Source of the DNA: Squalus acanthias | Taxonomy: Eukaryota | NCBI GenBank assembly: GCA_030390025.1 | Contig: CM059432.1 | Location: 83,330,001-83,394,000, forward strand | Length of the DNA stretch: 64,000 nucleotides | Direction: 5' to 3' | Shown here: piece by piece, positions 18,755-64,000 of the stretch | Layout: each line of letters begins with the position of its first letter | Position numbering within the stretch: position 1 is the first letter of the stretch | Position numbers and translations under genes: made by a program | Notes under the pieces: model-generated | Seen by the model: the letters and a program-made list of their open reading frames with translations, nothing else | What the model was told of the DNA's origin: nothing | The model's database searches: none

Positions 18755-18876
18755 CGGGGGCCGACCCCCACCAGGTAGGTGTTGGTCCCCTGCAGAGTCA
18801 TCGGGCCCGGGTTACAGCCCAGCACCCGCACCACGCGCGACGACAGCCGCTGCACCTTCGGAAGAGCCACCGCCAT
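18755..18876 (-). CDS. LACTB2: LACTB2 first coding exon
   Basis: ATG at 18876: [42 protein letters not shown]|gtgagt. Nearly identical to the vertebrate LACTB2 N-terminus. 122 coding nt in a GC/CpG-rich region. Confidence 0.97.
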
Positions 18877-18892
18877 CCAACCACTAGGCCGC

Positions 18893-20314
18893 GGAGTCCG
18901 GACTCGCTCTCCTGTTCGGGGAAAGGGAGGAGAGTGCAGCAAAATATAAAACACGGAGTCCGGATTCACTCTCCTGTTCGGGGAAAGGGAGGAGAGTGCA
19001 GGGAAAGATAAAACACGGAGTCCGGACTCACTCTCCTGTTCGGGGAAAGGGAGGAGAGTGCAGCAAAATATAAAACACGGAGTCCGGATTCACTCTCCTG
19101 TTCGGGGAAAGGGAGGAGAGTGCAGGGAAAGATAAAACACGGAGTCCGGACTCACTCTCCTGTTCGGGGAAAGGGAGGAGAGTGCAGCAAAATATAAAAC
19201 ACGGAGTCCGGATTCACTCTCCTGTTCGGGGAAAGGGAGGAGAGTGCAGGGAAAGATAAAACACGGAGTCCGGACTCGCTCTCCTGTTCAGGGAAAGGGA
19301 GGAGAGTGCAGAAAAAGATAAAACACGGAGTCCGGACTCACTCTCCTGTTCGGGGAAAGGGAGGAGAGTGCAGCAAAATATAAAACACGGAGTCCAGACT
19401 CGCTCTCCTGTTCGGGGAAAGTCAGGAGAGTGCAGCAAAATATAAAACACGGAGTCTGGGCTCGCTCTCCTGTTCGGGGAAAGGGAGGAGAGTGCAGCAA
19501 AATATAAAACACGGAGTCTGGGCTCGCTCTCCTGTTCGGGGAAAGGGAGGAGAGTGCAGCAAAATATAAAACACGGAGTCCGGACTCACTCTCCTGTTCG
19601 GGGAAAGGGAGGAGAGTTCAGGAAAAGATAAAACACGGAGTCCGGATTCACTCTCCTGTTCGGGGAAAGGGAGGAGAGTGCAGAAAAAGATAAAACACGG
19701 AGTCCGGGCCCGCTCTCCTGTTTGGGGAAAGGGAGGAGAGTGCAGAAAAAGATAAAACACGGAGTCCGGACTCGCTCTCCTGTTCGGGGAAAGGGAGGAG
19801 AGTGCAGAAAAAGATAAAACACGGAGTCTGGACTCTCTCTCCTGTTCAGGGAAAGGGAGGAGAGTGCAGCAAAATATAAAACACGGAGTCCGGACTCACT
19901 CTCCTGTTCGGGGAAAGGGAGGAGAGTGCAGCAAAAGATAAAACACGGAGTCCGGACTCACTCTCCTGTTTGGGGAAAGAGAGGAGAGTGCAGCAAAAAA
20001 TAAAACACGGAGTCCGGATTCACTCTCCTGTTCAGGGAAAGGGAAGAGAGTGCAGGAAAAGATAAAACATGGAGTCCGGACTCGCTCTCCTGTTCAGGGA
20101 AAGGCAAGAGAGTGCAGCAAAAGATAAAACACGGAGTCCGGGCCCGCTCTCCTGTTTGGGGAAAGAGAGGAGAGTGCAGCAAAATATAAAACACGGAGTC
20201 GGGGCCCGCTCTCCTGTTAGGGGAAAGGGAGCAGAATGCAGCAAATTATAAAACACGGAGTCAGGGCCCGCTCTCCTGTTCGGGGAAAGGGAGCAGATTG
20301 CAGCAAAAGATAAA
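18893..20314. repeat. Minisatellite, ~23 x 62 bp, directly upstream of the LACTB2 ATG
   Basis: Unit GGAGTCCGGACTCACTCTCCTGTTCGGGGAAAGGGAGGAGAGTGCAGCAAAATATAAAACAC. Unit starts at 18893, 18955, ... 20257 fit an exact 62-bp period. Confidence 0.97.
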
Positions 20315-20844
20315 TTAACAGCGGCAAAGTGCTCAGTTAAAACTGCTGGGAGCAGCTGGTGTGCAGCAGCAGGTGGGAGGACGGGACTTCTTGGGGAGAG
20401 AAGGATGTTGAAAGTGGTCGAGGAGGCAAGTGAAGGGAGTGAGAATTAAGTTTTAGGAACAAAATTATAAAATAAAAATGAAAGTTTACAGAACTGAGAA
20501 AGGAGGAACAGAGCCACCTAAGGCCAGGAATAATTGATGTGGCAGATATAGTTTGGAGGCACAACAGTGCTACCTGGTGTCTCGAGGCCTGAAAGGTGAG
20601 TATAACGTATACATGCTTTCGTGTTTATTTTGTAGGTTAAAATTACAACGCCTCCTGTTCACACAGAATCGTGATGAAAAGAGTCATGGCTCAAAATTAA
20701 TGAACAAGAAGTCTACACAGATAAAAGAATTTTTAATATACTCATCGATCTCCTGAGGCTTTGCTGGGTTGGGGGGTAATTTTGACTGGTAGTATAAAAT
20801 GCATGATAGTGAATATCTGTTTTATACTATGGAGTGACTGCTAC

Positions 20845-22649: not shown

Positions 22650-25356
22650 ATTGCACGTAATTTGCGGGAACAACAGGAGAAGAAATGACAGACCTTTTCA
22701 GTCAACTCAGCAGGAGGAGGAGGCAATTGAGATTTGGGATTCCACTCAGCTGAAGTGATACAGGCATAAGATGTGGGAGGTTCTGCACCCACAGTTGGGT
22801 CATGCAGAACAAGTGTTGATATTCAAAAATCAAGAAAAGATTTTAATTTCTGAAACTCGGTGCATTTCTCTTGTTCTTTTCTCTCCACATGAGTTGTAAG
22901 CAGGATAGAAGGAGAAAGAAAATGACCCAATGATTGGACCCTGAACAGCAGAGGCAGCCAACAGAAATTTGCTCACACCCTCTCAAAGTCTCACTAGCCC
23001 AGATAGAGTTTCTCGGGGATATAGATAGTTTAGATGAGGAGTGGACATTAGGTGTTGCATGATGCACAAGAAGCTAGATGAAGTTGTGGGAGAATGTTCC
23101 TGAGTGGAGGCTAAGGAAATATCAGCCCATGGCTGAAGAGCATTTGGATAATAATATCAGGGATCATACCATGAAAAGAAGGATGCTAGCAGAAGATCAA
23201 ACTCATATGAAGACAGTGCAAAGTCTTGCTGACCATGTGCAGCAGATGTCAGGACTGGCAATGGAGTTCAATGCTGTATTTTGCTGCAACATCAGAGAAA
23301 CCTCCTTAATAATGCAGAGCAGCCTGGAATGAGTGGCAGCTGCAGGAATTTCTTATGTCTCACAAAACAGAGGCCTATAAGTAAGTCAGCATCTCTAAAT
23401 GCTGGCGTTGACTTGTGGCATTGAGGCCTGGGGTGATGGAATGGACAGAATGGAGAGAGCAATATCTACTGGATACTGAGATCTCCAGAACACCATATTG
23501 AAGGATTTTCAGGATATTCAGTATACGCTTCGAGGGATTAAGAGATATTAGTAATTCCATAAGGTCTGTTTTTCACAGATCAGTGGAAACCAACAGCCTG
23601 ATCTCATGCCTAGTGGGAGACCAGGAGATGGCTCAGAGGATTCTGCCTTTCCTCTGGACAGCAGCGCCAAGAATCCTCTGCTCAAGAATCATCCCCTCAG
23701 ATGCCTGCCCAGGTAGAAGAAAGTCACGAAGCCATGGCTGTGTAGATTCCCAGTTCAGAGAAGCAGTCTGTCATGGGACCATCCCTGGACTCAGCAGCCC
23801 TGAGACAAGGGCCACCTGCATTCCAAGAGGCTCATAGTCACATAAAACAGTTGTTCACATCTCACACCCAGGCCCTCAGGTTGCACTTGGAAGAAGTGTT
23901 CGAATAGGAATGAGGAAAAAGTGTAAAGTCACAAGGGGAGTGCACTAAATGACTTCTAAATTATGAAGTTCCAGAAACCTTAAATGATTGTTGTCAGAAA
24001 TGTTGTTAGATGTGGTATAGCTATAATAAGATCTGACATTAACAAAAGTCTCTCTGCTGAGTTTGTCTGACTAGGGTTGATAACCCTCTCCAACAGGCTT
24101 ATGTCCAACCAGAGTTGGCAGCCCTCTATGTCACAGCTCTTTCACAGAAAATGCCTGTGATCCTGCTGTGTCTTCCTCATGACTGAGTTTCTTTCTCTCT
24201 CTCTCTCTCTCTCTCTCTCGGAGGGGGGGGTGTAATTCAGCTTCTGACTCAATCTCCTCCTCGGGAATCATAACTTCCAGGCCATTTGAAGAATAAAGCT
24301 ATGGAGGACGCAGTAGGCCTCCAAAATTCATGAGGTATCATTGGGAGCATATTGGAGCGAGCTGCTGACCTATCCTGCCATCCTTTCCCGGTCTGCCTTA
24401 TATTTGACTCCACTACCCAACCAACATGGTTGATTCAAACCACTTAGTTCAGGGCAACAAGGGATGGGCAATAAATACTGGCCTTGCCAGTGATGTCCAC
24501 ATCCCAAGAATTAATTAAAACAAATCTAGGTGCCTGAATCTTCCCTTCAGTGTGCCAAGGGCATCCTCAATTTTAATTCAAGGGCAGATATAACACTTGT
24601 TGCATTGTTTCTCTAGTGGTCCTTTTTAATATTGTTAGAAACCAAGTTAGCATTGGACAGCCCTTGTCTACAAGAAGATAAGTTCTTGATTCTGAAAGAG
24701 TGCAGGGAGGGTGAACTGCCGAAGGATGGATGAATCATTGCAGCTGTCTGTATACTGGGAATTGACATACAGAAACATATGCCTGTGGTCACAAGCTAAT
24801 TGGACATTAAGGGAATGAAGTATCTTTTGGTTCACATAATGGTGTGTGTTGACAATAGGGGTTTGTATGGCTACGAGTGCAATCTGTAGCTTCAAGCACA
24901 TGTGGAAAGCCTGTGATCCAATAAAAATGAATGGCTCACTCACCCATTGATCCTGCATAAAATGTAATAAACTGGACTTCCTTGGCAAACAGGGCGTTAA
25001 TTACTTACCGTATACAGGAAAGGGTAGCAAATAGACCTGGGAGAAGTCACTTGTTGCCATTTAGAAGGATCCAGGGGCCAAGAAATCAAACATAGTATTG
25101 TCTTTCAGTGCCATAGCAAACACTGTCCTGCTTCTTGAGCAAGTTTGTAGAATTCCCTTTCGAAGGTGCAAAGCTTTTCCACAGCTTCTGAGCTGAACCA
25201 CAGCCCCCTTATGCATAACTCTAGGGATACATTCAAATAACAAGTTCTGAGTCTACACACCCTGGTGACTTCTCTGGTGTTCCACTGGAACTAAATACCA
25301 GGCGTGGCGTATAATGAGCAGGCAATGGGATACTGCCCAAGATGAATTTCTACTCC
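22650..25356 (-). mobile_element. Old degenerate Harbinger element (transposase remnant on minus; probable partner-gene remnant on plus)
   Basis: ORF 24668-24988 reads NQKILHSLNVQLACDHRHMFLYVNSQYTDSCNDSSILRQ, equivalent to NRKGFHSLNVQLVCDH...YPGSCHDAFILRQ. TIR-like GAATTTCTACTCC near 25344-25356. A small LINE 3' fragment is inserted near 24380-24520. Left boundary uncertain. Confidence 0.65.
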
Positions 25357-26828: not shown

Positions 26829-27571
26829 GGCCCGAAAATTAGACCTAATACGCGAGAGTACGCACTGTGTACTCTCGCGTTTTAGGTCTCCAATTGCCGG
26901 TTTCCAGCATGCACTGTGCATGCGCGGGAAACCGGCACTTCGTGAATTCAAAAGGGGGCGGTTCCTAAGTGAACCGCGTGCGCGCTACAGGCTGTGCGCA
27001 CGCAGTGCACTTAGTGCTTTGAACGCGCAGGTAAGCATGGAAGATTTTACACATAAAGAAAGGAGGCGTAAGACCCTCTTTTAACAAGGTAAGTAGTTAA
27101 TTAAGTATTATTTTAAATTTTTTTCAACAGGTTTATCTTTTTTAGAGACTTTAAAGAAAAGTAAGTTTATTTTTATAACTTAAAAAGATTTTAAATTTTT
27201 TCAAAAATTTTATTTTTTGTTTAAAGTGGTTAATTTATTTAACTATACTTATTTTATTAATGTGATGGCTTTTTAAAAAAATTTAATTGAGGTTTAGCTG
27301 TTCTTTTGGGGGGGTATAGTATTCATAGCTTTGACAGCTCTTGCTGTGAAAACTATGAATGAAAGATGGTGTGCTGCCATTGGCTCTAACTGAATCACGT
27401 GATCCCAGAGCTCGCACGAACTAATTGCGTCTCTGGGTCACGCAAGCACTGCACAGCTGCAGCCTTGAAACTAAAGTTCGTGTGGGCCTGGAGGAAAAAG
27501 GTAGGCGCGGAGTGAGATATCGCGGGGAAGCCTTACCCCCGCGTGAACACTCAGTGTTTAATTTCTGGGCC
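26829..27571 (+). mobile_element. Harbinger-type MITE (copy A)
   Basis: TIRs GGCCCGAAAATT / AATTTCTGGGCC, perfect TSD AAT (26826-26828, 27572-27574), internal hairpins, AT-rich core. Confidence 0.88.
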
Positions 27572-29709: not shown

Positions 29710-30474
29710 GGGCCAGAAATTCGGCTCTTGTCGGGTGAGTACGCGCTGTGTACTCACCCGTAAGGCCACCTGAAGTGCCGGTTTCATGCATGCACTGCAC
29801 ATGCGCGGGAAACCAGAACTTCCGTTCCCCTGAAGGAAGGGGTTCAGAAGTCGAATGCGTGCGCAGGAGAGGCAGCGTGCACGCAGCGAACTTCATTTTT
29901 TTTTTCAGGCTTCTCCGTGAGGGTAAGTATGGAGAAGTTGCACATTTAAAAAGGAGGTGCAAGGCCTGTTTTTAACAAGGTAAGTGGTTAATTAATTACA
30001 ATTTAAACATTTTTTCAACAGGTTTATCTTTTTTACATAATTTAAAGAAAGGTAAGTTTATTTTTAGCATCATTAAAAAGTTTAATTAATTTTTTCAAAA
30101 ATTAAAATTTTTGTTTAAAGTAGTTAATTTATGTAATTTATAGTTATTTTAAAAATGTGATGGTTTAAAAAAAAATTATTTGAAGTTTTAGAGTGGTTTT
30201 GGGGCCGATCTCTATTCATAGATTTGACAGGTCTTCCTGTCAAATCTATGAATGAAAATTCCCTGCTACGATTGGCTCTCCATGGCCCACGTGATCCCAG
30301 GGGACGCTTCGAACTAACTGCGCCCCTGGGATACGCAAGCACTGTGCGCCGGCAGCTGCAGGAGGCCCAGGAGCTGAAGTCCTCGTGGGCCCGAAGCACA
30401 ACGGCAGGCGCAGTAGGTAAGTACGCGCGCAATGCTTGCACCCGCAGGAAGCCGGAGAGCCGAATTTCTGGCCC
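29710..30474 (+). mobile_element. Harbinger-type MITE (copy B)
   Basis: Perfect 19-bp TIR GGGCCAGAAATTCGGCTCT, perfect TSD ATT (29707-29709, 30475-30477). Confidence 0.92.
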
Positions 30475-32125: not shown

Positions 32126-32935
32126 AAGTGATACCAGAACGGTTAACAATCCTTTCAGATGCACTTAAATGGGCTCCAATGTTTTCCTGCAAGGGCAACT
32201 AACACATTCGACCATTTAATAAGTAGGTTTTAAGAGGACACTGAATGATCTTAAAAAGGTTTACGTGTCACACCAAAGTTCAATGTGAATTAAAGTTTGT
32301 GGCTACATCAAAAGTGCAGTGATTTGTCAGCAGGTCATTTCGCAATCATCCTCACTGTACAACTTCTATTAGATTTTGGAAATAACCCGATACATAATTT
32401 TGCTTTTTTTTCTTCCAAACTCATAGGGGGAAAAATTCAGTTGGTTGCGCCTCCCGTTAGCGCCTTAAGAGGGCGCTAATGGGGCGCAAAGCAACTAGCG
32501 CCCGGGCGCAGCGATGTTTGCGCCGCTTGCGAAATTAACTAGACATTTTGCGGCGGCGCTAAACTTTACTGCCGCGATCTCCTGCGCACGCAGATCTTGA
32601 TGTCATACGAGGGTGTAACGCCCTTGTGGCGCCCCGGAGCGGAAATTGAGTGGCACCCCCATCCTTTCCGCCTGGCGCAACCAACGACCGGAAGACTGGA
32701 ACGCTCCCCAGTCGCTGTGGGGCTGGGGGGCGCTATTTAAAGGGGGCCTCTTCCTGTCTTTCTCTGTGGTTAACATTTTTGCACCACTCGTTCTGAGAGA
32801 GAGAGAGAGATTCGGAGAGAGAGGAAGAGAGACTTCTGCATTGAGTCAACGTTGTGTGAGGTAGTTTTGGCTACTGATCATAACTTTGCAGGTACTTTGG
32901 TTTTTGACCTTCATAACTTTAATTGCCAAGAGACT

Positions 32936-34092
32936 ATGGGGGCTGCACTGATTGGGGGCGTCGTCCTGCGCCACCAGAATTGGAGAACACAGAGATGCAG
33001 AGAGAGAGTGGCAATCATGGCCAGACGGAGGAGGGCCAACAGGCCTCTGTACAGGAGACCTTACCCTCCCAGGGTATATCGCCAACAATTCACATATATT
33101 AATATGTCTGAGGAGCAGTGTTTGCGAAGGCTGCGCTTCAGCAAGGAGGTAGTCACTGAGCTCTGCCACCTGCTGCAGCCAGATCTGCAGCCTCAACTGA
33201 GGTCCAGGACGTCTCTGTCGGTGGCAGTGAAGATCACAGTGGCTCTGAACTTTTATGCCACTGGCTCATTTCAATCAGCTACTGGGGACATCGCCAATAT
33301 CTCCCAGTTTGTGGTGCATTTCTGCATCCGTCAGGTCACAAATGCCCTCTTTAAAAGGAGACGAGAGTACATCTCTTTCCCCATGACCCCAGACAAGCAG
33401 CAAGAACGCGCAATGGGCTTTGCTAGGATAGCGGGCTTCCCCATGGTGCAGGGCGCCATTGACTGCACGCATGTGGCTTTGCGTGCTCTGCATGAGAATG
33501 CCGAGGATTTCCGCAACAGAAAGGGGTTCCATTCCTTAAACGTTCAGTTGGTCTGTGACCACAGACAGCTGATACTCGCTGTCAATGCCCACTATCCTGG
33601 CAGCTGCCACAATGCATTCATCCTGCGCCAGACTACTGTGGCAGAACTTTTCGAGGCACCGCATCAGCCAGTTGGTTGGCTTCTCGGGGACAAGGGATAT
33701 CCACTGAGCACCTGGTTGATGACACCGCTCCGTACGCCCAACACCCCTGCTGAGCTGCGGTACAACGAGAGCCATCAAGCTACCAGGAACATCGTTGAGC
33801 ACACAATCGGCGTGCTGAAGCAACGGTTCCGCTGTCTGGACCATTCTGGAGGAGCCCTGCAGTACTCGCCTGAGCGAGTTTCCCACTTCGTAGTTGTGTG
33901 CTACATGCTGCATAACCTGGCAATCCTCAGGACCCAGCCAATGCCACCAGGCCTTGGAGCACCACCAGAGAGGAGGAGGAGAGGAGAGAAGAGGAGGAGG
34001 ATGATCATCAGCAGCACCAAGGCGGGAGGGAGGCCCACAATGTAGAAACTGGAAGGGCCGTCCGTCAACGGCTGATAGCAAGCCGCTTCTAG
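32936..34092 (+). pseudogene. Harbinger (HARBI1-like DDE) transposase, copy 1
   Basis: GAIDCTH, GDKGY and VEHTIG motifs present. The conserved CHD has become CHN, and a frameshift in the poly-Glu tail (~33970) diverts the ORF to a stop at 34045. The homologous stop is at 34090-34092. Confidence 0.88.
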
Positions 34093-34391
34093 GCCCCTGC
34101 TGAGGAAATGGCTTCTGCCATTGAGAACAACATGAATGAAACCAACCCGCAACCCCTAAGCCGGCCAAGGCAGCAATAATTCCAAAGACCAAACATGTAC
34201 ATTTTGAATACAAAATCTTATTTATTTCACAAACTCTGTGTGTGTCATTTCCTCATGACAAACTAATAGAAAGAAACACAAAAACACAGTCATTAACATA
34301 ACTGGTTCTCATAACCTGGAGATAATGTTCAAAAGTTTGACCACGAACCTCGGCCTTTAATAAAAAAATTACCAACATTTTGTCACACCTC

Positions 34392-36256
34392 CTACTTTTT
34401 GCCCTTCGAGGGTGATCTCCTTCCCTTGCGCACTTCCCCCCTTCCCACCCTACTGCTCCTCCGTAATGGGACCTCAGTGGCTGCAGCAAGGCTGGTGGAA
34501 GGCTGTTGATTGTCAGAACCTGAGACTGCAGATGCCCTTGAAGGACGGCTCGACCAGCTCTGGGCCTGGAGGGCCCGGTTGCAGACTGCACCAACTCTGC
34601 ATGGGCGGCAGCAGTCTGTCCTACAGGTGGTGGCAAGTGCAGTGGAGAAGTGACAGTGGTGGCAGCAGGAATGCTGTCATCTTGAGAGAGGACAGCAACT
34701 CCCTGCTCGACCGACACACTGGCACTCCCACGGGGCAGCACTTCAGCATCCGGAGCAATCTGCTGGAGCACAGATTGCTGGCCTGCTGCGGCGCGGTGAG
34801 AGCCCCGGGAAAATGTGTACGAACCAGCGAGGATGGCAGCAGTCAGTGCTCACGTGGCCTCAATCTGAGTCTGCAGGAGAGCAGTCAGAGATGGGGTCAC
34901 GGCAACCAGTGATTGAATTGCAGCACTAAACATTTGCGTGGCATCCGCCTGTGCTACAGCGAAGTGCTCCACACTCCTTGCCAGTGATTCAATGCATTCG
35001 GGCACCCTTCCCACTACACCCATGAGCTCAGTGTGCATGTCCACTGCCTGGGTGTTCATTTCAGCGATGAGCCACTCCTCCTCTGCGTCCAGTGCAGTAG
35101 GACTCGCTGGCATACTCTCCCTCCGGGGAGAAGGCCCCCGAGCTTCCCTACCCCCATGGCGTTGCTGCAGCCCGCTGGGTCCTGGAGCTTCACCCTCATC
35201 AGACCCTTTCCCCCTGCTCCCCTCCAGGGAAGGCGTGTTCCCAGTGTGGGTATGGGCTTCCTCGGGAGAGGGTGGCGCTGATGCTCCGCCTTCATCTTCC
35301 TCCTCGGCTGCAGCTTCACTCCCACTGGCAGCTTGAGGGCCCGTCTCCTCAGCTGGTGAATCACCATCTGAAAGCAGGGAGGTACAAGAGTGGCTTTAGC
35401 GTGAGGACAGGGGGGCAGTAAGGGAGGAATGAGTGCAGCGATTTAGTAAGTTGGATTGAAAGTGTCAAAGGCTGGTGTTGTGAGGGACAAGTGGAAGGAC
35501 AGAGGACAAAAAGGTGATGACCTTACCATTGCTGTCCAGAACGGGGTCGGCGTCTGCAGTGGCGACGGGACCGATCACCCGACTTTTCACAATCCTGTGG
35601 ACGCTTGCCTCAAGATCACTGAGGGGTTGCAGCTGAGGCCGCCCTCCACCCGTCCGTTGCTGCTGTCTCCTATTATGAGATAGCTTGGCCTGCAAGAAAA
35701 AGGACGGCGTCTGAGTAAATATACAGCCATGGTCTTGCCTGATGTGTCTCCCATAGGTGAGTAGCCCTTACTGTATGCAGCCATGGTCTTGCCTGATGTG
35801 CCTCCCATAGGTGAATAGCCCTTACTGTATGCAGCCATGGTCTTGCCTGATGTGCCTCCCATAGGTGAATACCCCTTATTCTATGCAAAGTGTGGAATGT
35901 GCGCGTGTGTTTCATGAGAGGGTCATAGGTGTTGGATGAGTGTTGTGCATTGGGGTTTTAAGACCCTCTGGCCATAGAGTGAGGTTGAGATGGAGGGATG
36001 GAGAGGTATTGAAAAAAAGCCACTCACCCTGACGATCCGAGTGAGGTCGTTCTCGACATTGTATATGGGTCCTGGGCACCATGCTCCTGGAGGAGACGCT
36101 CTGAGCCACCTCCCTCCACACTCTTCTGTGCTCGCGTGGCAAAGGCCTCCTGCCACTCTCAGGGAAGAGTATAGATCTTCTGCGCTCCACCGCGCCAACC
36201 AGAGCATCCAAGGCCCGCTCGCTGAAGTGCTGAGCTCGTTCTCTCACCCTCTCCAT
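34392..36256 (-). pseudogene. Harbinger Myb/SANT-like DNA-binding partner gene, copy 1 (exons 36256-36028, 35689-35527, 35367-34392)
   Basis: MERVRERAQHFSERALDALV...WREVAQSVSS. An 8-bp deletion relative to copy 2 near 36052 shifts the frame. Further stop and indel in exon 3. GT-AG introns. Confidence 0.85.
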
Positions 36257-36703
36257 AGTCCTTGGCTGGAAGATTTAGGCACAGGTCTTTCCAGGCCGAG
36301 ATTCAAGGCTCCAATGAGCAGGGTGTGGCTGGAGTGCAAGATCGACCCTCCCCATTAAGAACTGTCCGGCGCCAGTGTGTCTGTGTTCCATCGCTAACTG
36401 ACAGCACCTGCGCTGCGCCCGCGCTCTGAGTTAGCGCCTCGCTCCTCAGCCTTTGCGCCTTAAGACAGGTGTGTAGTGCCTGATTTAGCGCTCAAATCAC
36501 CTCCAGGGGCGATAAAAGTCAAGTTTGCAGTCGGAGGCGATAATTAGCGCCAGGCGCCAATCTTTGCGCCCGGCCGATAATTGCGCCCCAAATGGGGCGA
36601 TACTGAATTTCTCCCCCATAATTTATTAGTCTCTATGTATGCAACTTCCTGTTTTTGATACTCAGTAAAGTTCTAACAATGTTTTATATCTCCTACAAAT
36701 CAT

Positions 36704-37403
36704 GGGCCAGCAATTCGGCTCCCTGGCTTCCCGCGGGTGCAAGGATCGCGCGCGCACCTACCTACCGCGCCTGCCGTTGACCCCTGGGCCCGCGGGGGAT
36801 TCCGGTCCTGGGCCTCCTCCAACTGCCGGCGCGCAGTGCTTGTGTATCACAGTGGCGTAGTTAGTGCGATGTGCCCCCTGGGATCACGTGGGCCATGGAG
36901 AGCCAATGGCAGCAGACCATCTTTCATTCATAGATTTGACAGGACTTTTTTTTAAAAACCACATTTTTAAAATAACTATAAATTACATTAATTAACTATT
37001 TTAAACAAAAATTAAAATTTTTGAAAAAATTAATTACACTTTTTAACGGGGCTAAAACTAAACTTACCTTTCTTTAAAGTAATTTAAAAAAATAAATCTG
37101 AAAAAAATGTTTAAATTTTAATAAAATCAACACTTACCTTGTTAAAAGGCCTTGCGCCTCCTTTTTCAATGTGCATCTTCTCCGTGCTTACCCTCACGGA
37201 GGAACCTGTAAAAAACCCGAAGTGCGAGGCGAACGCGCTGGCCCTCCGGCATGCGCGTTCGACCTCTGAACCCCTTCCTTCAGGGGAACGGAAGTGCCGG
37301 TTTCCCGCGCATGCGCAGTGCATGCAAGAAACCGGCACTTTCGTTGGGCCTACGGGTGAGTACGCAGTGTGTACTCACCCGTAGAGACCCGAATTTCTGC
37401 CCC
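36704..37403 (-). mobile_element. Harbinger-type MITE (copy C, inverted relative to A/B)
   Basis: TIRs GGGCCAGCAATTCGG / CCGAATTTCTGCCCC, flanks CAT/AAT. The reverse complement aligns with 29710-30474. Confidence 0.88.
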
Positions 37404-50350: not shown

Positions 50351-51523
50351 CATTGGCTCATTATTTCTGTGCTGGTGCTAACTTTTCAACTGAAGCTACC
50401 TTTTCTAATTCAATTTTTCTTCCCTTTTTTCATTTATTTTGTATTTTTCCTTTGCAAATACGTATCCTATTCCCTTTTAGATGATTGTAAGCTTTTTATT
50501 TTGACTGGCATTAAATTGACAGCAAGACCAATTCTTTTGAAACAATTCGAGTAAGTTTATTAAACACACACACATGACATGGCCTATTGGACAAAACAAT
50601 CAGTTTACTGGTATCCTATGGACTCTACTTGATTACAACAGGTAAGGTAATGGGTTACAGATTTAAACAGACTTATACTTCCCTCTAAGTCAAGCAATGC
50701 ACGCGGCCTTCTTCCTTGGTCTGATCTGTAGAGGGGGGCTTCCTGCTTTTCCACGTGGTCATCAAGAGAGAGAGAGAGCTTTTGGTTTCCTTCTTTTATA
50801 TCTTTTGAAGTCCATTGTCTCTAGTATAAATTGCTAAGACCCCAGGATTGGGTCTTAGTTTCATGGCAGTTCTTGTTTGGCTTTCCTTACTCATGTGACT
50901 GTCTGCAGCGGCTGGTGCCATTTCTTGATTAAGTTAATCGTTTTGTTAACACCTTTTAATGGCTCTGAGTTTCGATGGGTTTTCGATGGGTTTGTTTACC
51001 CTGAAAGTCATAGGGGTAAAAATTCAGTTGGTTGCGCCTCCCGTTAGCGCCTTAAGAGGGCGCTAATGGGGCGCAAAGCCGCTAACGCCCGGGCGCAGCG
51101 ATGTTTGCGCCGCTCGGGAACTTAACTAGAGATTGTGCGGCGGCGCTAAACTTTACCGCTGCGACCACCTGCGCGCGCAGATTGTGACGTCATTCCATGG
51201 TGCAACACCCTTGTGGTGCCCCGGAGCGGAAATTGAGTGGCGCCCCCTACCTTACCGCCTGGCGCATCCAACGACCGGAAGACTGGAACGCTATCAATCG
51301 CTGTGGGGCTGGGGGGGGCGCTATTTAAAGGGGGCCTCTTCCTGTCTTTTTCTGTGGTTGACATTTTTGCACCACTCGTTCTGAGAGAGAGAGAGAGATT
51401 CGGAGAGAGAGAAAGAGAGACTTCTGCATTGACTCAATGCTTTGTGAGGTAATTTTGCCTACTGATCCTAACTTCGCTAGTACTTTAGTTGCTGTCCTTC
51501 ATTACTTTGCTTGCAAAGAGACT

Positions 51524-52684
51524 ATGGGGGCTGCACTGATTGGGGGCGTCGTCCTGCTCCAGCTGAATCGGAGGACACAGAGACGCAGAGAGAGAGTGGC
51601 AATGATGGCCAGACGGAGGAGGGCCAACAGGCGTATGTACAGGAGAGCTTACCCTCCCAGGGTATATCGTGAACAGCTCTCCTACATTCATATGTCTGAG
51701 GAGCTGTGTTTGCGAAGGCTGCGATTCAGCAAGGAGGTGGTCACTGAGCTCTGCCACCTGCTGCAGCCACATCTGCAGCCTCAACTGAGGTCCAGGACGT
51801 CTCTGTCGGTGGCAGTGAAGGTCACAGTGGCTCTCAACTTCTACGCTACTGGCTCATTTCAAGCTGCTGCTGGGGACCTCGCCAATATCTCCCAGTTCGC
51901 GGTGCATTGCTGCATCCGGCAGGTCACAAATGCCCTCTTTAAAAGGAGACGAGAGTTCATCTCTTTCCCCATGACCCCAGACAAGCAGCGTGACCACGCT
52001 CTGGGCTTTGCGAGGATAGCGGGCTTCCCCATGGTGCAGGGCGCCATTGACTGCACGCATGTGGCTTTGCGTGCTCCACATGAGAATGCCGAGGAATTCC
52101 GGAACAGAAAGGGGTTCCATTCCTTGAATGTTCAGTTGGTCTGTGACCACAGACAGCTGATACTCGCTGTCAATGCCCACTATCCTGGCAGCTGCCACGA
52201 TGCTTTTATCCTGCGCCAGACTACTGTGGCAGAACTTTTCGAGGCACCGCATCAGCCAATTGGTTGGCTTCTCGGGGACAAGGGGTATGCATTGAGCACC
52301 TGGCTGATGACACCGCTCCGTACGCCCAACACCCCTGCTGAGCTGCGGTACAATGAGAGCCATCAAGCTACCAGGAACATAATTGAGCGCACAATCGGCG
52401 TGCTGAAGCAACGGTTCCGCTGTCTCGACCATTCTGGAGGAGCCCTGCAGTACTCGCCTGAGCGAGTATCCAACTTCGTAGTTGTGTGCTGCATGTTGCA
52501 TAACATGGCAATCGTCAGGACCCAGCCAATGCCACCAGGCCTTGGAGCACCACCAGAGGAGGAGGAGGAAGAGGAGGAAGAGGACGAGGAGGATGATCAT
52601 CAGCAGCACCAAGGCGGGAGGGCGGCCCACAATGGTCAAACTGCAAGGGCCATCCGTCAACGGCTAATAGCAAGCCGCTTCTAG
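51524..52684 (+). CDS. Harbinger DDE transposase, open 386-aa ORF
   Basis: MGAALIGG... with FPMVQGAIDCTH, NRKGFHSLNVQLVCD, YPGSCHDAFIL, LLGDKGY, RNIIERTIGVLKQRFRCL and CCMLHN. No stops. Upstream TATTTAAA (~51322), CCGGAAG and TGACGTCA (51185). Confidence 0.92.
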   Translation: MGAALIGGVVLLQLNRRTQRRRERVAMMARRRRANRRMYRRAYPPRVYREQLSYIHMSEELCLRRLRFSKEVVTELCHLLQPHLQPQLRSRTSLSVAVKVTVALNFYATGSFQAAAGDLANISQFAVHCCIRQVTNALFKRRREFISFPMTPDKQRDHALGFARIAGFPMVQGAIDCTHVALRAPHENAEEFRNRKGFHSLNVQLVCDHRQLILAVNAHYPGSCHDAFILRQTTVAELFEAPHQPIGWLLGDKGYALSTWLMTPLRTPNTPAELRYNESHQATRNIIERTIGVLKQRFRCLDHSGGALQYSPERVSNFVVVCCMLHNMAIVRTQPMPPGLGAPPEEEEEEEEEDEEDDHQQHQGGRAAHNGQTARAIRQRLIASRF

Positions 52685-52996
52685 GGCCCCTGCTGTGGAA
52701 ATGGCTTCTGCCATTGCTAACAACATCAATGAACCCAGCACGCAACCCCTAAGCCGGCCAAGGCACCAATAATTGCAAACGCCAACCATGTATATTTTGA
52801 ATACAGAAACGTATTTATTTTACAAACTCTGTGTGTGTCAATTCCTCATGACAAACTCATAGAAATAAACACAAAAAAACAGTCAATAACATAACTGGTT
52901 CTCACAACCTGGAGATAATGTCCAAAACACTAAACAAAAGTTGGACCATGAACCTCGACCTTTAATAAAAAAATGACCAGCACTTTGTCACACCTC

Positions 52997-54816
52997 CTAC
53001 TTTTTGCCCTTCGAGGGTGATCTCCTTCCCTTGCGCACTTCCCCCCTTCTAACCCTACTGCTCCTCCGTAATGGGACCTCAGTGGCTGCAGCAAGGCTGG
53101 TGGAAGGCTGCTGCTCGTCAGACCCTGACACTGCAGATGCCCCTGAAGGACGGCCTCGACCAGTTCTGGGCCTGGAGGGCCCGGCTGCAGACTGCACCAA
53201 CTCTGCATGGGCGGCAGCAGTCTGTCCTACAGGCGGTGGCAAGTGCAGTGGAGAAGTGACAGTGTTGGCAGCAGGAATGCTGTCATCATGAGAGAGGACA
53301 GCAACTCCCTGCTCGCCCGACACACTGGCACTCCCACGGGGCAGCACTTCAGCATCCGGAGCAATCTGCTGGAGAACAGATTGCTGGCCTGCTGCGGCGC
53401 GGTGAGAGCCCCGGGGACATGTGAACGAACCATCGAGGTTGGCAGCAGTCTGTGCTCGCGTGGCCTCAATCTGAGTCTGCATGAGAGCAGTCAGAGATGG
53501 GATCACGGCAGCCAGTGACTGAATTGCAGCACTAAGCGTTAGTGTGGCATCCGCCTGTGCTACAGCGAAGTGCTCCACACTCCTTGCCAGTGACTCAATG
53601 CATTCGGGCACCCTTCCCACTGCACCCATGAGCTCAGTGTGCATGCCCACCGCCTGCGTGTTCATTTCTGCGATCAGCCGCTTCTCCTCTGCGTCCATTG
53701 CAGTAGGAGTCTCTGGCATACTCTCCCTCTGAGGAGAAGGCCCCCGTTCTTCCCTACCCCCATGGCGTTGCTGCAGCCCGCTGGGTCCTGGAGCTTCACC
53801 CTCATCAGACCCTTCCCCCCTGCTCCCCTCCAGGGAAGGCGTGTTCCCAGTGTGGGCATGGGCTTCCTCGGGAGAGGGTGGCAGTGATGCTCCGGCTTCC
53901 TCTTCCTCCTCAGCTGCAGCTTCACTCCCAGTGGCAGCTTCAGGGCCCGTCTCCTCAGCTGGTGAATCACCATCTGAAAGCAGGGAGGTACAAGAGTGGC
54001 TTTAGCGTGAGGACAGGGTGGCAGTAAGGGAGGAATAAGTGCAGCGAGTTAGCAAGTTGGATTGAAAGTGTCAAAGGCTGGTGTTGTGAGGGAGAAGTGG
54101 AAGGACAGAGGACAAAAAGGTGATGACCTTACCATTGCTGTCCAGAACGGGGTCGGCGTCTCCAGTGGCGACGGGACCGATCACCCGGCTTGCCACAATC
54201 CTGTGGACGCGCTACTCAAGATCGCTGAGGGGTTGCAGCTGAGGCCGCCCTCCACCTGTCCGTTGCTGCTGTCTCCGATTATGCGCCAGCTTGGCCTGTA
54301 AGAAAAAGGACAGTATCTGAGTAAATATACAGCCATGGTCTTGCCTGATGTGCCTCCCATAGGTGAATAGCCCTTACTGTATGCAGCCATGGTCTTGCCT
54401 GATGTGCCTCCCATAGGTGAATAGCCCTTACTGTATGCAAAGTGTGGAAAGTGTGTGTGTGTTTCATGAAAGGGCCATAGGTGTTGGATGAGTGTTGTGC
54501 ATTGGGGTTTTAAGACCCTCTGGCCATAGAGTGAGGTTGAGATGGAGGGATGCAGAGGTATTGAGAAAAAGCCACTCACCCTGACGACCCGAGTGAGGTC
54601 GTTGAACTTTTTGCGGCATTGAGTATGGGTCCTGGGCACCATGCTCCTGGAGGAGACGCTCTGAGCCACCTCCCTCCACACTCTTCTGCACTCGCGTGGC
54701 AAAGGCCTCCTGCCACTCTCAGGGAAGAGTATACATCTTCTGCGCTCCACCGCGCCAACCAGAGCATCCAAGGCCCGCTCGGTGAAGCGATGAGCTCGTT
54801 CTCTCACCCTCTCCAT
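52997..54816 (-). pseudogene. Harbinger Myb/SANT-like partner gene, copy 2 (exons 54816-54580, 54295-54133, 53973-52997; 458 codons with one in-frame TAG)
   Basis: Exon 1 encodes a Myb/SANT-like domain (RFTERALDALV...WREVAQSVSS...QCRKKFNDL). Canonical GT-AG introns, phases 0 and 1. Single TAG at 54214-54212 (codon 107). Confidence 0.87.
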
Positions 54817-55418
54817 CCTTGGCAGCAAAATGGATTCACAGGTCTCTCCAGGCCGAGATTCAAGGCTGCAATGAGCAGGGTGTGGCTGGGGAGCAAGTTG
54901 GCCCCCCCCGCTTTAAGAAGTGGCCGGCGCCAGTGTGTCTGTGTTCCCTCGCTAACTGGCAGCACCTGCGCTGCGCTCGCGCGCTGAGTTAGCGCCTCAC
55001 TGCTCGGCCTTTGTGCCTTAAGACAGGTGTGCAGCGCCTGATTTAGCGCTCCACTCACCTCCCGGGGCGGTAAAAGTGAAGTTTCCAGTCAGTGGCGATA
55101 ATTAGCGCCAGGCGCTAATATTTGCATCCAGACAATATTTGCGCCCCAAATGGGGCGCGACCTAATTTTTCCCCCATACTGTCTCTGGGGGTTATCTTGT
55201 TAATGCAGGTTTCTTTTGTTCAGTTTCACGCCATTTCCTTGAGCCCCGCCCACCCAGAGGAGAACCATACACATTTAATTCATCTTTATTACATACATCT
55301 TATATTAATAGTCTCGAGTCCATCATACATCATAATTTTAACAAAACATACATTTTTATTCTTACATGATGTTGTAGTTTCTGTCTCAATTGCCACTTGT
55401 CATAAAGCATTCTGTTCT

Positions 55419-56445
55419 ACATAGATACATAGATACATAGATGATAGGAGCAGGAGTAGGCCATCCGGCCCTTCGAGCCTGCTCCGCCATTTAATGAGAT
55501 CATGGCTGATCCTCCAATTCAGTATCCCGTCCCCGCCTTCTCTCCGTAACCCTTAACCCCTTTTGCCTGTAGAAATATATCTAATTCCCTCTTAAATATA
55601 TTTAATGAGCTGGCGTACACTGCCCTCTGTGGCAATGAGTTCCACAGGTTCACCACCCTCTGAGTGAAGAAATTCCCCCTCATTTCTGTCCTAAATGGTT
55701 TAGCCCTTATCCTTAAATTATGTCCTCTAGTTCTGTTCTCACCCGCCAAGGGAAACATTCCTTCTGCATCTAGCCTGTCTAGACCTGTCAGAATTTTATA
55801 CACTTCTATGAGGTCCCCTCTCAATCTTCTAAACTCCAGTGTGTACATCCCTAAACTACATAGTCTCTCCTCATAGGTCAATCCCGCCATTCCTGGTATC
55901 AGCCTGGTGAATCGCCGCTGCACCCCCTCCATGGCAAGAACATCTTTCCTCAGATGAGGCGACCAAAACTGTACACAGTACTCGAGGTGTGGTCTCACCA
56001 GTGCCCTGTACAGCTGCAGCAAGGTATCCCTGTTCCTGTATTCCAACCCTTTTGCTATGAAGGCCAGCATACCGTTTGCCTTCTTGACCGCCTGTTGCAC
56101 CTGCATGCTCGCCTTCAGTGACTGGTGTACAAGAACACCCAGGTCTCTCTGTACTTCCCCCTCTCCCAATTTATTGCCATTTAAATAATAATTTGCCCTC
56201 CCGTTCCTGCACCCAAGGTGGATAACTTCGCACTTGTCCACATTATAGTGCATCTGCCATTTATCCGCCCAATCACCCAGTCTGTCCAAATCGCTCTGGA
56301 GCTTCCTGGTCTCCTCCTCTGAGCCCACCCCCCCTCCTAGTTTAGTGTCGTCTGCAAATTTGGAAATGCTGCATCCGACTCCCTGATCCAGGTCATTAAT
56401 GTAAATTGTGAACAGCTGGGGACCCAGGACAGATCCCTGTGGTAC
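55419..56445 (-). mobile_element. Young CR1 LINE 3' portion
   Basis: Open 269-aa ORF 55519-56328 preceded by FADDTKL. 8-bp tandem tail (ACATAGAT)n at 55419-55442. Confidence 0.92.
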
Positions 56446-56798
56446 CTGTGTGAAATCTGTGAAAACATTTCTTTCAATTTACCTCTTCATTCTACCAGTG
56501 ATAATCTTTTGTGCCTATGTCCGCTTGTTACAGATTTGTCAACCAATAGAAACAACCTTTCACTATTTAACCTCTCAAAACCTTTCTTAATTTTGAAAAC
56601 CATTATATTCCCTATTAACCTCTCTGATCCAGTGAAAAAAGACTCAGTTTTTGAGCATTTCATTATAACCATAACCTTTATCTCAGTATTGTTCTAGTTA
56701 ATCTTCACTGTACCCTTTTGATACCCTTCCTATAATGGAGTACCCAGAACTGCACGTAATATTCCAATAGTGGCTTAACCAATACCTTCTACAAAATC

Positions 56799-60997: not shown

Positions 60998-63900
60998 GGG
61001 GGAGAAATTCGGTTGGTTTGCGCCTCCCATTAGGCCTCCGGTTTGCGGTGGTGCTAACCACTACCGCCACGATCTCCTGCGCTCGGAGATCGTGATGTCA
61101 TCCAGCCGCTCATCGCCCCGGTAGCGCCCCGGACCGGAAATTCATTTTCGCCTCCTGTCTCTGCGCCTGCTGTTAGGAACGACAGGTAGAGGAGGCGGTT
61201 TGCAGTCGGCTGGGAGCTGCAGGAGCGCTATTTAAAGGCGTGCACTTCCTGTTTTTTTTGTCGGCAAACAATGCTGCCTTGTCACTTTGACAGAAGCAGA
61301 CAGGCGTTTTGACCCATTTGAGGTTTTCCTACTTGAAGGAGTTTTGCTCCTGACAAAAAGTTATCAGCTTCATTTGTCTTACTTTTGATATTGCAACATT
61401 TCCAACACTTAATGGGGGCTGTACTGGCACGGGACCTCACCCTCCAGCTTCACCGTCGGAGGCAGCGGAGGCAGAGAGAAAGATTGGAAAACGTAGCCAG
61501 AGGGAGGAGTTCCAAAAGGGCTCTCAACAGGAGAACTTACCCTCCCAGGGTATTCCGAGAGCAGTTCTCCTACATTCATCTGTCAGAGGAGCAGTGCCTT
61601 AGATTCTGCCAAGACCACTCGGCTCCCGACCTCATTACAGACTTGGTCCAAACATGGACAAAGGAGCTGAATTCCAGAGGTGAGGTGAGAGTGACTGCCC
61701 TTGACATCAAGGCAGCATTTGACCGAGTCTGGCATCAAGGAGCTCGAGTAAAATTGAAGTCAATGGGAATCGGGGGGAAAACTCTCCACTGGCTGGAGTC
61801 ATACCTAACACAAAGGAAGATGGTTGTGGTGATTGAAGGTCAATCATCACAGCCCCAGGACATTGCTGCAGGAATTCCTCAGGGCAGTGCCCTAGGCCCA
61901 ACCATCTTCAGCTGCTTCATCAATGACCTTCCCTCCATCATATGGTCAGAAGTGGGGATGTTCACTGATGATTGCACAGTGTTCAGTTCCATTCACAACT
62001 CCTCAGATAATGAAGCAGTCCATGCCTGCATGCAACAAGACCTGGACGACGTTCAGGCCTGGGTTGATAAGTGGCAGGTAACATTCGTGTTACATAAGTG
62101 CCAGGCAATGACTATCTCCAACAAGCGAGAGTCAAATCACCGCCTCTTGACATTCAACGGCATTACCATCGCTGAATCCCCCACCATCAACATCCTGGGG
62201 GTCACCATTGACCAGAAACTTAACTGGACCAGCCACATAAATACTGTGACAACAAGAGCAGGTCAGAGGCTAGATATTCTGTGGCGAGTGTCTCACCTCC
62301 TGACTCCCCAAAGCCTTTCCACCATATACAAGGCACAAGTCAGGAGTGTGATGGAATACTCTCCACTTGCCTGGATAAGTGCAGCTCCAACAACACTCAA
62401 GAAGCTCGACACCATCCAGGACAAAGCAGCCTGCTTGATGTGCATCCCATCCATCACCTCAAACATTCACTCCCTCCACCACCGGCGCACTATGGCTGCA
62501 GTGTGTATCATCTACAAATGCACTGCAGCAACTCGCCAAGGCTTCTTCGGCAGCACCTCCCAAACCCGCGACCTCTTCCACCTAGAAGGACAAGGGCAGC
62601 AGGCACATTGGGAATACCACCACCTCCAAGTTCCCCTCCAAGTCACTCACCATCCTGACTTGGAAGTATATCGCCGATCCTTCATCATCGCTGGGTCAAA
62701 ATCCTGGAACTCCCTACCTAACAGCACTGTGGGAGTACCTTCACCACACGGACTGCAGCGCTTCAAGAAGGCGGCTCACCACCTCCTTCTCGAGGGCAAT
62801 TAGGGATGGGCAATAAATGCTGGCTTTGCCAGCGACGCCCACATCCCATGAATGAATTTTATAAAAGGCCCCGCTTCAGTAAGGAGGTAGTCACAGAGCT
62901 CTGCCACCTCCTGCAGCCAGAGCTCCAGCCTCAGCTCAGGACCAGGACGTCTCAGTGGCAATGAAGGTCACAGTCACTCTCAATTTCTACGCCAGTGGCT
63001 CCTTCCAAGCTTCAACAGGGGATATTGCAAGCATTTCACAGTTCGCCGTCCATTGCTGCATCCTGGAGTTGACAGATGCACTGTACAGAAGGAGAAGGGA
63101 GTACATCTCATTCCTCATGACCAGAGACAAACAGCATGAACGCTCATGTGGCCTCGCAAGGATAGCGGGCTTCCCCATGGTTCAGGGCGCCATTGACTGC
63201 ACCCACGTGGCATTGCGGGCACCTCATCACAATGCAGAGGTGTTCCACAACCACAAAGGCTATCACTCTCTGAATGTGCAGCTGTTGTGCGACCATAGAC
63301 AGCGCATCCTCTCCGTCAATGCCCGCTATCCTGGCAGCAGCCACGATGCATTCATCCTGCGATAGACTGGTGTCCCAGCACTGTTCCTCCCACCACATGG
63401 AACTTGCGGCTGGCTGCTCAGAGACAAGAGTTATCCTCTCGCCACCTGGCTGATGACACCCCTCCGCAACCCCAACACTCCTGCTCAGCACGCATAAAAT
63501 GAGAGCCATAGCGCCACCAGGAACATGATCGAACAGACTATCACCATGTTAAAGCAACGGTTCCACTGTCTTGACTGCTCTGGAGGAGCTCTGCAGTACT
63601 CCCCTGATCGAGTCTTCGTTTTCGTTGTTGTGTGCTGTGTGCTGCATAACCTGGCTATTGCCACCAGGGATTGCAGGTCCACCTCAGGAGGAGGAAGAGG
63701 GACAGGAGGAGGAGGAGGCGGAGGATGAGGATAAAGAGGAGGAGGAGCCGCACCAACATAGGAGGGAGCCGCTCAATGTTGCTTCTTCAAGGGCTGTTTG
63801 TGAATGCCTCATTACACAGCGCTTCTAATAAATGAGATAGCACAAGGCATTTGCACAGAACAACCACATCATTACAGCCAGCTCGCAGCCCCTATGACCA

Positions 63901-64000
63901 GGCAAAGCTCAAATGAGAAACATCACAAAATTTGCTCCATCGAAATAAACATTTATTATTCTGCACAACTTTATCTTATCAAACACAACCAATAATAAAC
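60998..64000 (+). mobile_element. Harbinger copy 3 (related subfamily), LINE-interrupted, continues beyond the window
   Basis: Left TIR GGGGGAGAAATTCGG. Transposase pieces at 61412-61603 and 62866-63828 (GAIDCTH, HSLNVQLLCDH) carry stops and frameshifts. Confidence 0.9.
61604..62865 (+). mobile_element. 5'-truncated LINE family A inserted in the Harbinger 3 transposase
   Basis: Transposase ...GAGCAGTGCCTTAGA | TTCTGCCAAGACCACTC (LINE) ... CCCATGAATGAATTTTATAAA | AGGCCCCGCTTCAGTAAGGAG (transposase resumes). Confidence 0.92.

Follow-up and report, generated by a model that had tools for sequence, protein, structure and literature searches.

The element at positions 51013–55175 of a 64,000-nt stretch of Squalus acanthias DNA (contig CM059432.1, positions 83,330,001–83,394,000; the whole stretch is called the window below) is a canonical two-gene PIF/Harbinger transposon of 4163 bp, complete end to end. 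All four hallmarks of the superfamily were present: a DDE_Tnp_4 transposase, a Myb/SANT gene, terminal inverted repeats (TIRs), and a 3-bp target-site duplication (TSD). This element, copy 2, probably belongs to an abundant PIF/Harbinger family of elasmobranchs whose expansion dates back millions to tens of millions of years, and is a full-length member that is no longer autonomous. It does not carry both genes intact in cis, its Myb gene being stopped at codon 107, and it is not near-identical to the family sequence, being 1.6–1.7% off, with 12 private sites among the 32 listed. As an ordinary ageing copy, copy 2 does not point to a currently active element.

Structure of the element and its two genes

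The features are given by position in the window, strand, and description.

51010..51012, left TSD, ATA
51013..51027, plus strand, left TIR, 15 nt
51044..51149, left subterminal TTAGCGCC motifs at 51044 (plus), 51059 (minus), and 51142 (minus), by motif search
51322..51328, plus strand, TATA-like box 5′ of the transposase gene, identified by motif match alone
51437..51439, plus strand, upstream ATG in frame with the homologous start and 29 codons ahead of it, private to copy 2
51524..52684, plus strand, open reading frame (ORF) of the DDE transposase, 386 aa, open, by ORF translation and Pfam
52814..52969, candidate poly(A) signals, convergent, AATAAA at 52814 on the minus strand (Myb gene) and at 52864 and 52964 on the plus strand (transposase gene), motif match only
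52997..53973, minus strand, Myb exon 3, open, with an acidic stretch, a middle part predicted helical by eye, and a basic C-terminal tail
53974..54132, minus strand, Myb intron 2, 159 nt, GTAAGG..TTTCAG
54133..54295, minus strand, Myb exon 2
54212..54214, minus strand, premature TAG, codon 107 of 458
54296..54579, minus strand, Myb intron 1, 284 nt, GTGAGT..TTACAG
54580..54816, minus strand, Myb exon 1, with a Myb/SANT-like domain at residues 7–75 (PF13873 Myb_DNA-bind_5, E = 2.8e-09)
54989..55118, right subterminal TTAGCGCC motifs at 54989 (plus), 55102 (plus), and 55111 (minus), by motif search
55161..55175, minus strand, right TIR, matching the left TIR at 12 of 15 positions
55176..55178, right TSD, ATA
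32426..36617, plus strand, copy 1, full length, with its own ATA TSD
60998..64000, plus strand, copy 3, a more distant Harbinger, approximately 76% alike in the transposase, extending past the window edge

The perfect ATA duplication and the TIRs described in an initial annotation of this DNA were confirmed. The TIRs of copy 2 pair at 11 of their first 12 bases (14 of 15 bases match in copy 1), and position 5 of the left TIR is T in copy 2 and G in the left ends of copies 1 and 3 and in both right ends. These TIRs are shorter than the 25–50 bp given as usual for Harbingers in PMC9179366 (here and below, articles with PMC numbers are cited for excerpts of their text), and single TIR changes are described as reducing the transposition of mPing (PMC9921582). 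The octamer TTAGCGCC occurred 11 times in the window compared with 0.64 expected, a count reached in none of 100 shuffles; all 11 occurrences were within the ends of copies 1 (five) and 2 (six), and the octamer is a putative binding site of the Myb protein. A chance origin of the element structure is excluded, because a second full-length copy with its own ATA TSD is found in unrelated flanks. In run X1, 55% of which was read, contigs linked 55175 to 51013 across 1 or 11 intervening letters, with depths of 45–47, like other single joints. The probable source of these joints is tandem copies arranged head to tail at other places in the genome; excised circles are less likely.

The transposase is uninterrupted, as had been claimed, with a stop-free ORF matching PF13359 DDE_Tnp_4 (E = 1.1e-39). 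In its predicted structure (mean predicted local distance difference test value, pLDDT, 74), D176 lies in strand 171–182, D252 after strand 248–250, and E288 in helix 271–297; these residues, which we take by convention to be the catalytic triad, are likely to form it, and the strands and helices follow each other in an RNase-H-like order. D176 and D252 were each kept in 10 of the 12 aligned elasmobranch HARBI1-type homologs, and the likely catalytic Glu in only 2; the elasmobranch records without this Glu may be decayed or domesticated. Copy 2 has the private changes D83H and R158H at sites where 8 of the 12 homologs have Asp and 9 have Arg, respectively. Position 51438, in the upstream ATG, is C in copy 1 and in 89–100% of the aligned read depth. 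No solved structural relative of the transposase was found by sequence profile, and Foldseek gave no match at E ≤ 0.001, with weak DDE transposases and integrases only. A complex prediction combining transposase residues 40–340 with Myb exon-3 residues 85–190, run without alignment, scored 0.00.

The Myb/SANT gene model, built from the DNA, consists of three exons (237, 163, and 977 nt) with GT..AG introns and 458 codons, and is correctly phased, in agreement with the initial annotation. Exon 3 had no significant Pfam match. The sawshark protein P0008 was collinear across the exon 1/exon 2 junction, and full-length relatives were represented by one match among 151 candidates. P0008 (Pristiophorus, annotated as HARBI1, 523 aa) joins Myb exons 1 and 2 to a full transposase, either as a gene-model artefact or as a real fusion. 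The claim that copy 2 has only one visible lesion was accurate for stops and frameshifts, the TAG at 54214–54212 standing alone, and did not extend to its private missense changes and TIR changes. A Glu of P0008 is aligned with the stop at codon 107. The stop retains the Myb DNA-binding domain, and 351 C-terminal residues, including the basic tail, are lost. As a rule, a stop more than 50–55 nt before the last exon junction exposes a transcript to nonsense-mediated decay; because the stop in copy 2 lies 79 nt upstream of that junction, its Myb transcript is likely prone to such decay. Splicing around the stop by skipping of exon 2 was rejected, as the frame shifts, and the lone remainder-1 candidate for an alternative acceptor past the stop was the AG that the stop codon itself provides, which lacks a pyrimidine tract. 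The 15 joints listed, of 63 in all, included no splice joint of the model; run X8 was only guessed to be RNA, and one X8 contig (53945–54144) crossed intron 2 unspliced. No RNA datasets on record were listed as containing the element. Intron 1 holds a 54-bp tandem repeat, with two units in copy 2 (54326–54439) and three in copy 1 (35720–35887).

Drift, age, and comparison with copy 1

Four measures agreed on an estimated drift of copy 2 of roughly 1–2%. Relative to consensus-like contigs, copy 2 differed at 35 of 2156 nt (1.6%) in run X18 and at 14 of 823 nt (1.7%) in run X8. For X18 (organism F, another organism label), seven long deeper contigs were used, and an eighth piece (depth 5.9, 10% off) was omitted as another subfamily; for X8, three deep contigs were used, and three shallower pieces within the element (6–12% off) and two flank pieces were omitted. 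The shares of shared words in 11 of the 23 listed runs (0.54–0.57) would correspond to 1.8–2.0%, if these runs hold only words common to the family. When the copy 2 branch was polarised by copy 3 (282 codons), we observed 10 replacement and 9 silent changes, with 10 sites unpolarised; after allowing for the selected part, neutral-like change on this branch was 0.8–1.6%. The 40 variant rows listed, of 290 in all, included 32 sites inside the element, and at 12 of these 32 at least 95% of the aligned X1 depth differed from copy 2. Copy 1 had the majority letter at all 12 sites (and at 23 of the 32 overall); because the X1 majority and copy 1 both differ from copy 2 there, the copy 2 letters at the 12 sites are private.

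With rates in sharks between 1.6e-10 and 1.1e-9 per site and year (values derived from PMC9826928), a drift of 0.8–1.7% is equivalent to an age of 7–106 million years. At the shark pedigree rate of 7e-10 per generation (PMC10587355), a drift of 1.2% is equivalent to more than ten million generations. Over the 2538 coding nt of both genes, 0.8–1.4 stops are expected at a drift of 1–1.7%; at 1.7%, the expectation is 1.4 stops, or 2.8 lesions when indels are set at 5% of substitutions. For indel ratios of 0, 0.05, and 0.1, the probability of at most one lesion at 1.7% was 0.61, 0.23, and 0.08, and the probability of no lesion was 0.26, 0.06, and 0.01, respectively. By this estimate, a single stop is an ordinary load for the drift of copy 2 and not surprising. 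The inference of a recently active family in the initial annotation is not supported: copy 2 is 1.6–1.7% off the consensus-like contigs, and one lesion is expected at such drift.

Some observations pull away from an ageing copy of this kind. The copy 2 branch departs from neutrality (P = 0.02), so that part of its distance is selected lineage divergence, and the differences between copies 1 and 2 are patchy (χ2 = 95.6, df = 40). The indel ratio of 0.1, with P = 0.08 for at most one lesion at 1.7%, favours the younger end of the range, and CpG sites and CpG-rich repeats may change faster than the rates applied. In addition, 20% of the X1 contigs, though short, are at least 99% alike, and the 40 variant rows listed, of 290 in all, do not include the site of codon 107.

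Copies 1 and 2 showed 90.7% identity over 4163 nt (BLAST), with 312 substitutions at 4134 aligned sites (7.5%). Their flanks are unrelated, and segmental duplication as the source of the two copies was rejected, as the similarity stops no more than a few bases from the TSDs. The ratio of nonsynonymous to synonymous substitution rates (dN/dS) between the copies was 0.40 for the transposase, 0.28 for its core (P = 1e-5), and 0.73, not significant, for the Myb gene; because of the low value for the core, the divergence of the two copies appears to have arisen partly in separate working lineages. The differences reached 16–18 per 100 nt in clusters at 51113–51212, 51415–51514, and 55042–55141, compared with 2–5 in some stretches of the Myb introns and of exon 3, which suggests that the copies are mosaic.

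The Myb gene of copy 1 is broken three times, by an 8-nt deletion in exon 1 and by a stop and a 1-nt deletion in exon 3. Its transposase has a 4-nt C-terminal deletion causing a frameshift and the changes D226N, P185L, and C323Y, and its replacements hit two residues invariant in all 12 homologs. These data do not favour the proposal that a functional system could be rebuilt from copies 1 and 2. Copy 1 does have GCA at the position of Myb codon 107, as stated, but GCA and TAG differ at all three bases, inside a run of four adjacent differences, and GCA is not the codon lost by copy 2, because it is three changes away whereas the Glu codon indicated by P0008 is one change from TAG. With copy 1 diverged by 7.5%, partly of a separate lineage, and carrying more lesions, the product would be a chimera; a rebuild would more soundly start from the majority sequence of the family or from a copy that is open in its natural state. 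Copy 3 is interrupted by a long interspersed nuclear element (LINE) at approximately 61597–62864 and has CTT as its left TSD candidate. A 488-codon open frame (61337–62803) fuses the 5′ end of its transposase to a reverse transcriptase.

The family, its relatives, and alternative explanations

The family is abundant, and the data are read only in this sense: 39,866 X1 contigs aligned to the element, and summed X1 depth per bin was 2.3e5–1.7e6 inside the element vs. 1.1e3–4.5e3 in the flanks, values that do not give a copy number. Likeness was 99% or more for 20% of the X1 contigs, 95–99% for 34%, 90–95% for 39%, and less than 90% for 7%. At least half of the sampled words of the element were present in 18 of the 23 listed public-run rows, which came from 10 studies with six organism labels and one unlabelled; the run with the highest word share may stem from the source of the window itself. 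In run X21 (organism H, approximately 6% read), reads were mainly on a GA microsatellite. Runs X19 and X20, whose word shares were small, were left aside. No empty-site joint for the copy 2 insertion was found among the 15 of 63 joints listed, and the flanks themselves are repetitive.

Transposase homologs numbered 423 at E ≤ 1e-20. Named sharks and rays accounted for 111 of the best 120, and the first 74 were all elasmobranch, with the best in Pristiophorus japonicus (67% identity). The elasmobranch proteins annotated as putative nuclease HARBI1 belong to the same transposase clade as copy 2, and P0008 also has collinear Myb exons 1 and 2; at no more than 67% identity to the copy 2 transposase, however, they represent a separate family. 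Two near-identical cross-species pairs of such proteins (P0004/P0005 and P0027/P0029), in each of which one member is without a likely catalytic Asp, are possibly domesticated transposase genes of cartilaginous fish. Harbingers are reported among the commonest DNA transposons of the grey reef shark (PMC12498223). The literature search, which did not cover repeat libraries of the Repbase or Dfam type, found no description of the copy 2 family or of an active shark Harbinger, and the family is probably unnamed so far within a known superfamily.

Copy 2 shares the DDE transposase and Myb-like genes, the TIRs, and the 3-bp TSD with zebrafish Harbinger3_DR (PMC3016246, PMC9392472, PMC9179366). Harbinger3_DR is a reconstructed element, whereas copy 2 is a decayed genomic shark copy. 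The flanks of copies 1 and 2 matched the 15-bp target consensus of Harbinger3_DR (PMC3016246) at 8 and 7 of 12 positions, levels reached by 0.4% and 1.8% of the window background, a hint from two sites that the target preference may be shared; the central triplet is ATA in the shark copies and CWG in Harbinger3_DR. Like the family of copy 2, Harbinger-Snek of sea kraits (PMC8437027) is a vertebrate Harbinger present in many copies, which encodes both proteins and has solo-ORF variants as well as non-autonomous derivatives. It has 269 intact copies in one sea krait species and 1 in the other, with reads covering an intact copy, and it came by horizontal transfer, whereas the nearest relatives of copy 2 are in sharks and rays. 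The domesticated HARBI1 and NAIF1/MSANTD genes encode the same two protein types (PMC9392472) but are single-copy host genes without TIRs. Copy 2, in contrast, is a TIR-bounded, TSD-flanked repeat, and the 64 kb hold two complete copies that both have TIRs and a TSD, in addition to the 39,866 X1 contigs.

The perfect TSD and the single stop without any frameshift would also fit a very recent insertion by a sub-lineage that is, or was until recently, active; the distance to the family would then be lineage divergence, and the stop alone would postdate the insertion. Some purifying selection on the copy 2 branch (P = 0.02) and the 20% of X1 contigs at least 99% alike point in the same direction, and the 269 intact copies in one sea krait (PMC8437027) illustrate that such families can persist. 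We consider this unlikely, however: at 12 of the 32 sites listed there is essentially no X1 aligned depth (55% of the run read) with the copy 2 letter, and therefore no large sibling group shares these letters; private replacements are found at the conserved R158 (9 of 12 homologs) and D83 (8 of 12); and the TIRs are less symmetric than those of the more broken copy 1. If the locus were kept as a transposase donor in trans, or were an early domesticated HARBI1-like gene, then the open ORF, the likely triad, the TATA-like box, and the poly(A) signals would be accounted for, and supply in trans is known from Caenorhabditis inopinata (PMC13668399). An open frame is nevertheless expected at the age of copy 2, conserved residues have private changes, and the intact TIRs, the TSD, and the many siblings are unlike a domesticated single-copy gene, so that this possibility is very improbable.

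An equally slender chance was assigned to recent horizontal transfer among the holder organisms, in which case likeness across species would be uninformative on age. Such transfer is documented for the sea krait Harbinger (PMC8437027), at least half of the sampled words recur in 18 of the 23 rows under six organism labels and 10 studies, and the raw reads of organism H (X21) were without the family. Nonetheless, the nearest transposases (first 74 matches) make up a series from sharks and rays; with a molecular clock as slow as that of sharks, related species can have a family in common at 98%; and the private changes date copy 2 by whatever route it came. An intact locus, at which the TAG would reflect a faulty assembly or an allele of a polymorphic site, is hardly credible, although TAG is one base away from a Glu codon and codon 107 lies outside the 40 of 290 variant rows listed. 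The window contains no N, the 2538 coding nt show no frameshift-type errors, and the stop is accompanied by dozens of like private changes at a drift (1–1.7%) for which 0.8–1.4 stops are expected.

Neighbouring elements, mechanism, and significance

Three Harbinger-type MITEs (miniature inverted-repeat transposable elements) of 700–765 bp with 15-nt TIRs were found in the window, separate from the element at 51013–55175.

26829–27571, MITE
29710–30474, MITE
36704–37403, MITE

Their TSDs were AAT, ATT, and CAT/AAT. The suggestion that the element may mobilise these MITEs was not supported, given their different TIRs and TSDs, the lack of any BLAST match between the element and the three MITEs, and the absence of TTAGCGCC from all three (vs. 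six occurrences in copy 2 and five in copy 1). The MITEs appear to belong to another family; as their TIRs are of a similar general type, weak cross-mobilisation by the element is conceivable. Subterminal palindromes of its own, a core rich in A/T, and several donor-like AGGTAAGT motifs characterise this MITE family, and the third MITE lies 83 nt from the right TSD of copy 1. Elsewhere in the window, we observed a 62-bp tandem repeat with more than 20 units approximately 93% alike (18768–20431), an inverted 102-nt fragment 73% like the transposase gene (24716–24817), and dense LINE fragments (55420–56478 and elsewhere), one of which, at 55519–56478, has an open 319-codon reverse-transcriptase frame (PF00078). 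Regarding host-gene context, four long ORFs of the window that did not look like repeats had no Pfam match.

The premise that Harbinger transposition needs both proteins is supported by PMC9392472 and PMC8437027, citing Sinzelle et al. 2008. The Myb-like protein is described as binding the element ends and the transposase N-terminus and as importing the transposase into the nucleus (PMC9392472, PMC9179366, PMC8437027, citing Sinzelle et al. 2008). In the ancestral element, the Myb/SANT protein would thus have bound the ends, most likely at the repeated TTAGCGCC, and, by analogy with the zebrafish system, would have bound the transposase and carried it to the nucleus. The DDE transposase, with a chemistry presumed from the family, would have cut the GGGG..CCCC ends, and a 3-bp staggered insertion would have produced the ATA TSD. 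After insertion, copy 2 would have gained an estimated 1–1.7% of neutral change, one such change stopping the Myb gene at codon 107, and the transposase frame, with its private missense changes, would be open by ordinary luck. Copy 2 would be mobile only if an intact sibling supplied the Myb protein in trans, and split supply in trans has been described for a Harbinger family of Caenorhabditis inopinata (PMC13668399).

Whether other copies keep the family alive is a matter separate from the ageing of copy 2, and we see a small chance that this is so and that some copies are young and expressed in the germline. At the drift of copy 2, 6–26% of full-length copies are expected to have neither a stop nor a frameshift in either gene, and an abundant family should therefore hold many open two-gene copies. 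If the family is alive, it would provide a natural, unreconstructed vertebrate Harbinger that prefers targets of approximately 15 bp with ATA at the centre and whose Myb-binding code (TTAGCGCC) can be read. It would also be, as far as the literature was searched, the first active DNA transposon of cartilaginous fish, and a handle on the structure of the two-component transpososome, for which no solved relative was found. For transposon tools and for structural studies, live copies would offer a natural vertebrate two-protein transposon whose target site is semi-specific. Copy 2 as such is of little weight, as Harbingers are known in shark genomes and near-intact copies are expected under a slow clock: in sharks, an element one codon from intact need not be young.

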